DNA from: a virus
Taxonomy: Duplodnaviria; Heunggongvirae; Uroviricota; Caudoviricetes
IMG/VR virus record: IMGVR_UViG_2711768167_000005
Span: 1-4,280 of that record
DNA: 4,280 nt
Strand: one strand, 5' to 3'
Part shown: piece by piece, positions 2,227 through 2,826 of the stretch
Layout: every line of letters starts with the position of its first letter
Position numbering within the stretch: position 1 is the first letter of the stretch
Program-made: the position numbers and the translations under genes
The notes under the pieces: model-generated
The model's input: only the letters and a program-made list of their open reading frames with translations
What the model was told of the DNA's origin: nothing
The model's database searches: none

Positions 2227-2826
2227 TCACTCTCCTTTGGTGCGAATGCCAGCGACGCGTGGCACATTAACTTCCACGATGCGCACATTTGGTTTGTACA
2301 TCTCAATCGCTGTCAGCCAGTCAGCTCCTGTCATGCGCTTTTCCGCATCGCCATTAGTCCATAGAACCGGCACACCAATAGCCTTCATCGCGATTTCTAT
2401 TTCCCCGGCAATGGCGCTTTTTCCGCAACCAGTAAAACCAGATACAACGACAAGAACTTCGCCTTTGGCTGGTTTTATTTCCCGTGCTTCCAGTTCTGCA
2501 ATACGCTTACTCCCATCCGCGATTACTCCCTCGTAATATTCACGCTGCTCCTTGAGTTTTGATTTTGCTGCCTCCAGTTCGTCCAGTAGTGCAATCACAT
2601 CGGGATCACTATCATCAACTACTGTTACGCGTGATTCTTCATAATGTTCGTCTGCAAAAGTACGCCCTATCTTAAAATATCCGTCATCACCCTCACCGGA
2701 ACAGGCATAAACAACATGTGCTCCAGATATGCGCTGTATTGACATTTCCTCGCCACAAACAGAGCATTCAGGTACTGGCTTAGGTGAATAACGTTCCCGT
2801 AGCGCCTGATAATCAATCTCGCTCAC
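2227..2826 (-). CDS. Ea22-like mosaic protein (199 aa) with N-terminal CxxC, a central coiled-coil-like segment and a Walker-A-like motif
   Basis: GTG start at 2826..2824 with GGGAGG 7 nt upstream. The N-terminus MSEIDYQALRE matches the N-terminus of the 70-aa ORF at 3031..3243. Walker-A-like GFTGCGKS at residues 130-137 (nt 2416..2439) follows a hydrophobic strand EVLVVVS. TGA at 2229..2227. Confidence 0.6.
   Translation of the reverse strand: MSEIDYQALRERYSPKPVPECSVCGEEMSIQRISGAHVVYACSGEGDDGYFKIGRTFADEHYEESRVTVVDDSDPDVIALLDELEAAKSKLKEQREYYEGVIADGSKRIAELEAREIKPAKGEVLVVVSGFTGCGKSAIAGEIEIAMKAIGVPVLWTNGDAEKRMTGADWLTAIEMYKPNVRIVEVNVPRVAGIRTKGE

Follow-up and report, generated by a model that had tools for sequence, protein, structure and literature searches.

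Among described phage proteins, the closest relatives of the one considered here are the Ea22 proteins of bacteriophage lambda and of the Shiga toxin (Stx) phages, which sway the lysis–lysogeny balance of these phages and are pro-lysogenic (PMC10834534, PMC7093339). In Ea22 proteins an N-terminal segment is followed by a coiled coil and then by a C-terminal domain that is exchangeable (Goddard et al. 2024, PMC10834534), the lambda and P27 proteins being tetramers (PMC10834534), and it is the exchangeable C-terminal domains that are thought to carry specificity. The neighboring recombination and “ea” hotspot has been described in a recent preprint, where EaE–Ea22 fusions are also noted, as a reservoir of anti-immunity proteins. 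The subject of the present analysis is a member of this family encoded on the minus strand, at 2227..2826, of a 4,280-nucleotide (nt) stretch of viral DNA (IMG/VR record IMGVR_UViG_2711768167_000005, positions 1 to 4,280), hereafter called the window. The reading that we favor, and to which as a whole we assign a probability of about 0.6, is that the 199-residue product of this gene is a mosaic Ea22 protein bearing a phosphate-binding mini P-loop cassette and that it is not tied to the downstream gene. The integrity of the gene, its family membership, its mosaic architecture, the conservation of the motif, the purifying selection and the lack of linkage are the parts of this reading in which our confidence is high.

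The window is a minus-strand array of short genes, and the gene in question is a complete Ead/Ea22-like family open reading frame (ORF) that begins with GTG, a start also used by homologous genes at three other loci, and ends with a TGA (2229-2227). A Shine–Dalgarno (SD) sequence, GGGAGG, can be read at 2833..2838 (minus strand), 6 nt 5′ of the GTG. The length of 199 amino acids, the start codon and all the coordinates given in a first-pass annotation of this DNA stand as read. The exact protein occurs on 162 public contigs, where it is called “ead/Ea22-like family protein”; its cluster at 90% identity comprises 140 member sequences, one of which is found on at least 1000 contigs, and other genomes have proteins of equal length that are annotated as intact.

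The window is 100% identical to a region of the Escherichia coli VTB96815v chromosome (NZ_CP178648.1, 846948-region), in which the Prokaryotic Genome Annotation Pipeline (PGAP) splits the ORF into two incomplete pieces, namely 2623-2826 (“missing C-terminus”) and 2227-2583 (“missing N-terminus”). Taken at face value, this annotation would make the ORF a decayed remnant consisting of two Ea22-like pseudogene fragments fused in frame, and this view can also invoke the pseudogene calls on the adjoining ORFs and the fact that the protein is without some 30–60 residues of the stalk found in its relatives of 231–240 residues. The remnant explanation is nevertheless rejected as very improbable because the frame is uninterrupted and preceded by a good SD sequence, intact 199-residue proteins exist elsewhere, the copy numbers are those given above and the C-terminal part of the protein is under purifying selection (see below); variation in the length of the stalk, in turn, is normal for the mosaic Ea22 family, as seen both in our alignment and in the literature (PMC10834534). 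The gene is thus an intact one, encoding a mosaic accessory protein of the Ead/Ea22 family that is carried by temperate phages, phage-plasmids and integrative and conjugative elements (ICEs). In the same PGAP annotation a neighboring 171-residue ORF is called “frameshifted”, the annotation being limited to the first 59 codons, and the ORF that follows it (1579-1713) “incomplete”. All three ORFs (2227-2826, 1710-2225 and 1579-1713) are open frames having many identical copies elsewhere, and the pseudogene calls placed on them are probably annotation artefacts due to mosaicism.

As to family membership, the Ea22-like N-terminus recognized in the first-pass annotation is borne out by the Pfam family Ead_Ea22 (PF13935), which matches residues 2–88 with an E value of 4.6e-26 and a score of 92.5 bits against a cut-off of 27. 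The head, corresponding to residues 1–72 (2611..2826, minus strand), contains the C21-x-x-C24 element that had been singled out earlier, followed in the AlphaFold2 (AF2) model by a β-hairpin, the strands of the head being at residues 29–34, 37–41 and 67–70. C42 and H61 are conserved together with this element in the aligned homologues having the same type of head; because these C/C/C/H columns are conserved, a Cys3-His zinc site formed by C21, C24, C42 and H61 is suggested, and the Cys-rich head is probably a zinc-binding knuckle. The coiled-coil-like segment likewise finds its counterpart in the AF2 model, where residues 75–113 (2488..2604, minus strand) form a single long helix, the stalk, which includes the lambda-type Ea22 segment EQREYYEGVI.DGSKRIAELE.

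A search with the 199-residue protein matched 6885 proteins at E ≤ 0.001, and their alignment resolves into three parts that assort independently: a head, which occurs in several types, a stalk, which is helical and differs in length, and a C-terminal cassette. Indeed, other Ea22-like proteins possess the same head and stalk joined to unrelated C-terminal cassettes, and all of them share the terminal tail ...AAGIRIKGE. The 199-residue protein therefore displays the whole Ead/Ea22 plan of head, long coiled-coil helix and variable C-terminal domain. The old GenBank label “DUF550” for PhiV10p48 was set aside, since current Pfam gives Ead_Ea22 instead.

The cassette carried by this protein is a portable module of about 68 residues (residues 122–189; 2260..2463, minus strand) having the pattern GEVLVVVSGFTGCGKSAIAGEIEI...NGD.EK..T.ADW...YKP.V.IVE.N.P. 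It contains the Walker-A-type motif GFTGCGKS (residues 130–137, with K136 and S137) at 2416..2439 (minus strand), exactly where the first-pass annotation had placed it, with EVLVVVS in front, and, toward its end, the sequence VRIVEV (residues 181–186; 2270..2287, minus strand), a candidate third strand ending in Glu185. By our own arithmetic GxxxxGK[ST] is expected by chance in ~0.5% of proteins of 199 residues, and for this reason the Walker A motif taken by itself is weak evidence; what argues that the segment did not arise by chance is its invariance across the family.

The extent of this family was assessed by an exhaustive HMMER search with residues 115–199, which found the module in 434 representative clusters at 50% identity. 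Among the 150 of these that were listed, the module is C-terminal in proteins of 110–623 residues and N-terminal (residues 22–96) in others of 156–465 residues, and a Pfam scan of ten proteins in which it is fused to other regions gave no informative partner domains. Many of the carriers come from organisms of high guanine-plus-cytosine content, and matches in genomes come from Escherichia, Serratia, Chania, Mangrovibacter, Methyloversatilis, a metagenome-assembled genome of Burkholderiales and Methylobacterium; the module is spread over unrelated proteins of phages and elements of alpha-, beta- and gammaproteobacteria. Only 19 of 50,697 phage records were matched by tblastn of the module; the phages bearing it are phiV10, O157 typing phages, the P1-like D6 and JL22, a Yersinia phage, BcepC6B and jumbo phages of Burkholderia and Ralstonia, and the same search gave no match in lambda, 933W, VT2-Sakai, phi24B or P27.

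The conservation of individual columns was scored on 148 unique module sequences extracted with the pattern G.TG.GK[STN], in which T132 is fixed by the pattern itself (distant members have V at this position). G130, G133, G135, K136, E142, E162, K163, Y177, P179 and E185 are invariant, and S137, A138 and G141 are conserved in 147 of the 148, whereas the x positions of the motif vary across the family (F/L/Y/I/P/R and C/S/V). The first-pass annotation had named homologues devoid of GxxxxGKS as the finding that would count against its proposal, and on this score the proposal survives: every intact homologue checked, down to 39% identity, keeps GxxGxGKS with the exception of one GKN and one GCCKS, the remaining exceptions being truncated or frameshifted entries. 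The motif reads GPVGSGKS in BcepC6B gp37 (locus L010, 1414-2013; 59% identity), GPVGCGKS in the Methylobacterium copy (51%) and GRTGVGKS in gp138 of the jumbo Burkholderia phage SURPRISE13 (locus L009, 1012-2052; 39%), the last of which has lost GEIEI and NGD while retaining VRVVEKN. In both gp138 and gp37 the module occupies the middle or the N-terminus of an otherwise unrelated protein, and both keep GxxGxGKSA and V.(I/V).E. The ratio of nonsynonymous to synonymous substitution rates (dN/dS) of the module is 0.03–0.15 among E. coli and phage copies, and the module is under purifying selection.

Databases already name the gene “ead/Ea22-like family protein”, and the names “ATP-binding protein” and “adenylylsulfate kinase-like” are in use for fragments of it. 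Neither a Pfam model nor a description in the Ea22 literature searched exists, on the other hand, for the cassette as a separate mini P-loop domain that is portable.

Is this module a P-loop fold? Locally, it has the arrangement expected of a Walker A element: the hydrophobic, strand-like EVLVVVS is followed by GFTGCGKS and then by AIAGEIEIAMKAI, and in the AF2 model a helix (residues 136–149) directly follows. Candidates for a Walker B function are the invariant E185 in VRIVE, which is possibly a Walker-B-like residue, and N158-G-D160, which is aligned with the DGD of adenosine 5′-phosphosulfate (APS) kinase. The overall architecture, however, is not that of a canonical NTPase. Only 62 residues follow the motif, in keeping with the approximately 60 and with the insufficient length noted in the first-pass annotation; a three-layer α/β/α core with at least five parallel strands is not found in the ~68 residues of the module, which offer at most three candidate strands. 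The AlphaFold model of the module alone (predicted local distance difference test, pLDDT, 82.6) consists, according to DSSP, of three helices and no strand, and the full-length AF2 model (pLDDT 73; poor at residues 179–199) agrees with it, so that DSSP finds zero strands in the module in both models. Structure prediction, which had been proposed as a check of this region, thus yields the helix expected right after the motif but none of the sheet. In Foldseek searches of the module model against PDB and BFVD nothing was retrieved at E < 0.1; the best BFVD match, an 82-residue phage protein with 38% identity, is probably a member of the module family, and the C-terminal domain of lambda Ea22 is not among the matches.

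Sequence searches of curated libraries returned only sub-threshold matches. The P-loop proteins matched in this way were APS kinase, AAA_16, MinD, gluconokinase, UvrA, ArsA and shikimate kinase, always through their first ~40 residues, the Pfam score with APS kinase (PF01583) being 13.5 bits, below the cut-off of 21.1. The matches to PDB sequences, searched with both the full protein and the module profile, were also sub-threshold: the top ones, GAPDH and HasAp, were dismissed as spurious, and the remaining ones are the Walker A segments of UvrA, ArsA and the gluconate, shikimate and APS kinases. When the module profile was compared by hhalign with small reference alignments built from sequences confirmed against PDB, the probability was 96% with APS kinase (E 3.4e-9; 41 ungapped columns with 34% identity, module positions 8–48 corresponding to CysC 27–67), 88% with shikimate kinase (45 columns), 35% with Ras (18 columns, Walker A only) and 0.8% with adenylate kinase. 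The segment aligned with APS kinase comprises strand 1, Walker A, helix 1, strand 2 and the DGD. Once the eight Walker A columns were masked, however, the score with APS kinase fell to 17.2 in the same register, not exceeding the maximum of 18.5 obtained with a column-shuffled null. No proven homology to APS kinase is claimed, because the masked test and the shuffled null show no independent signal outside the motif; the kinship suggested by the alignment is credible, although it rests mainly on the motif. As judged from its sequence, the module is similar to the N-terminal third of P-loop kinases of the APS kinase type and cannot by itself form a complete P-loop core; a canonical NTPase it is not.

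Given these properties, the Walker-A-like segment might be regarded as the relic of a captured kinase fragment, the module having become a pure protein-binding domain. Such an origin would fit the shortness of the module with respect to a P-loop core, the absence of a sheet from the AF2 models and of a significant fold match, and the many invariant residues located outside the P-loop (GEIEI, EK, T.ADW, YKP). A relic, however, should drift, whereas the three glycines, the lysine and the serine do not vary even at 39% identity, the most distant member having changed its x positions and most of helix 1 but not these residues. In addition, the Lys and the Ser/Thr that are kept are precisely the residues of Walker A that contact the ligand, and the (N/D)GD aligned with the DGD of APS kinase is largely kept as well. 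We consider the relic explanation, which is the main rival of the favored reading, rather unlikely.

The favored reading, i.e., that of a phosphate-binding cassette on an Ea22 scaffold, can be formulated as follows. The cassette would be an exchangeable C-terminal “warhead” placed on the Ead/Ea22 head and coiled-coil stalk, with a layout that runs from strand 1 through Walker A and helix 1 to strand 2, and then through (N/D)GD and a short helix to a strand 3 ending in the invariant Glu. By analogy with the Ea22 proteins of lambda and P27, the stalk would oligomerize the 199-residue protein, thereby gathering two or four of the mini-domains, and the clustered mini-domains could hold the phosphate of a nucleotide or of another phosphorylated ligand through K136/S137 and D160 and/or E185. 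Binding of the ligand might then influence some process of the host or of the element shortly after entry. That the module binds phosphate or a nucleotide at all is put forward tentatively, with odds slightly short of even.

A bolder version of this scheme is that the module is a natural minimal P-loop of three strands, whose functional nucleotide or phosphate site, possibly a hydrolysing one, is generated only when the Ea22 coiled coil oligomerizes. Engineered P-loop prototypes, in oligomeric form, bind nucleotides as well as polyphosphate and nucleic acids. Phages and ICEs would, in such a case, employ the module for binding or sequestering a nucleotide-type host ligand, for instance a signalling or immune nucleotide. 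We regard this version as unlikely; if it were true, the module would be the smallest Walker A domain known in nature, and the engineered “P-loop prototypes” would have a living counterpart in it.

The first-pass annotation had further proposed that the 199-residue protein, as a nucleotide-binding or sensor component, forms a two-component unit with the product of the gene that follows, described as a nuclease of the PD-(D/E)xK fold. This gene (1710..2225, minus strand) encodes 171 amino acids and belongs to phrog_9263/631, of unknown function. A motif of this type does exist (P39-D40...E53-A-K55), but the 171-residue protein has no match in Pfam, NCBIfam or the PDB sequences and shows only a weak similarity to phrog_5429, a “DNA repair protein” (E 0.003); it is the motif alone that suggests the PD-(D/E)xK assignment.

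The close spacing of the two genes, also noted earlier, is real: the TGA is separated by a single T (2226) from the ATG of the next ORF (2225-2223), and the SD sequence of the latter, AAGGAG (2237-2232), lies within the last codons of the upstream gene. These elements, together with the tail AGIR(T/I)KGE, are contained in a junction of 31 nt (2223..2253, minus strand), GCAGGCATTCGCATCAAAGGAGAGTGATATG, which is identical in the VR50, E6 and 75/02 Stx loci, each having different neighbors, the copy in the window differing at two bases. In a prophage of strain VR50 the module is followed, with the same 1-nt spacing, by a DUF551 gene and in strain E6 by a 49-residue ORF, while in phiV10 the module gene is followed by a 58-residue ORF whose start overlaps the stop. 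Conversely, in the Shigella phage 75/02 Stx the 171-residue gene comes after an Ea22-like protein having a different, non-P-loop C-terminal domain. The junction is a module boundary common to these arrangements, as would be expected in mosaic phage regions, and looks like a site of recombination at which translational coupling is preserved as well.

How often the two genes occur together was determined in 5426 complete E. coli genomes at a coverage of at least 80%. The module DNA was found in 355 genomes, the 171-residue gene in 910 and a junction probe spanning the two in 78, so that adjacency concerns 22% (78/355) of the genomes bearing the module and 9% (78/910) of those bearing the gene. 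Moreover, the 171-residue gene is absent from the flanks of ~16 other module-bearing loci, distant homologues (metagenomic contigs and Burkholderia phages) are surrounded by series of small unknown ORFs among which no partner recurs, and neither protein has a significant match to a defence-system model of PADLOC.

A dedicated, translationally coupled sensor/nuclease unit made of the Ea22-like P-loop protein and the PD-(D/E)xK-like protein would account for the stop and the next ATG being 1 nt apart, for the location of the SD sequence in the last codons of the upstream gene and for the PD...EAK motif of the downstream protein, and the recurrence of the pair in 78 complete genomes would speak in its favor. 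These features are outweighed by the low co-occurrence, by the identical junction found in front of other partners, by the presence of the 171-residue gene behind a non-P-loop variant and by the lack of the pair at other loci, to which must be added the negative PADLOC result and the lack of profile or PDB support for a nuclease fold; on these grounds a two-component unit is unsupported, and we consider it highly improbable. The 171-residue gene is a neighbor and not an obligate partner, and no functional tie links it to the module; more generally, the tight 1-nt spacing seen in mosaic “ea” regions stems from the common junction and ought not to be read as functional pairing.

The genomic setting also departs from that of a classical ea gene. 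The locus of the window lies inside an ICE of the SPI-7/PAPI-1 type, and not in a prophage, adjoining tRNA-Ser; the order of the genes is ParA, dnaB-PI, ParB, DUF2786, DUF2857, ParE-like, the small ORFs of the window and the STY4528 replication protein, followed by PFL_4669, topoisomerase III, STY4534 and ssb. The window locus is therefore not an early-left (exo-xis/ea) region of a lambdoid or P22-like prophage, although close homologues of the 199-residue protein do adjoin int/xis in prophages. Of the 1797 E. coli matches to the region 1710-2826, 397 are plasmid-borne. The location in an ICE and the plasmid copies imply that accessory genes of the Ea22 type move between phages, phage-plasmids and ICEs. 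A role of the 199-residue protein as an accessory or counter-defence factor would fit the preprint mentioned at the outset, which is cited here as context only.

The window contains a second, short Ea22-like ORF of 70 residues (3031-3243, minus strand; Pfam Ead_Ea22, E 4.6e-10), located two genes upstream of the 199-residue gene; it has a lambda-type head (MSKIDYQELREAAEKAMHDDWGFD...) and is without a C-terminal cassette. The ORF between the two (2813-3034) encodes a winged-helix-like protein of 73 residues and overlaps the start of the 199-residue gene by 14 nt. Farther upstream, an ORF with a ParE-like toxin domain (PF24732, E 1.6e-19), near which no obvious antitoxin was recognized, shares 4 nt with the end of the DUF2857 gene (3423-3671 and 3668-4246, minus strand). 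On the downstream side, a direct repeat of 145 nt with 93% identity (738-882 and 1569-1713) encodes the N-termini (M[T/I]TITKERLLTI.QWRETYGPGSNVVLPAEEAEELARI) that a pair of paralogous ORFs, 469-882 and 1315-1713 (both minus strand), have in common; the DUF551 protein encoded next to the module in strain VR50 begins with this N-terminus too. The 65-residue product of the ORF at 893-1090 (minus strand) contains two CxxC pairs (CPKC...CPEC), matches phrog_4173 and displays weak matches to the Rad50 zinc hook and to zinc ribbons. Finally, a run of 11 C at 61-71 (G11 on the coding minus strand) and one of six C at 83-88 lie within a coding sequence annotated in the source genome as a hypothetical protein of 73 residues and could constitute a slippage-prone tract or a sequencing-error hotspot.

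Compared with known systems, the module is set apart from APS kinase (CysC; PF01583) by its size, in that it matches only ~41 of the ~175–200 residues of the kinase. The full APS kinase domain, with its APS-binding region and lid, is not present, and in comparison with P-loop kinases in general the module has no lid, no substrate-binding region and no base-binding elements, strands 4 and 5 being absent as well. The engineered “phosphate-loop” proteins (PDB 6c2u) and a de novo designed ATPase (PDB 9jix) are likewise short strand–(P-loop)–helix constructs, of ~55–160 residues, and appear among the weak sequence matches of the module profile (E 0.3–0.6); both are artificial, and their likeness to a natural module implies no homology. 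As a conserved portable domain having no Pfam entry, the module bears on the question of how small a P-loop can be.

With the Ea22 proteins of lambda and with variants V1–V3 of the Stx phages (PMC10834534), the 199-residue protein shares the Pfam family, the N-terminus MSxIDYQALRE and the stalk segment, as well as mosaicism and a common architecture in which a head and a stalk are joined to an exchangeable C-terminal domain. It differs from lambda Ea22 in having a Cys-rich type of head, the probable zinc knuckle not being a feature of the lambda head, and in the placement of its gene in an ICE as opposed to the exo-xis region. Its C-terminal cassette is not among the lambda, V1, V2 and V3 types (PMC10834534), and the invariant Walker A motif of this cassette provides a chemical handle for a direct test that the other types of Ea22 domain do not offer.

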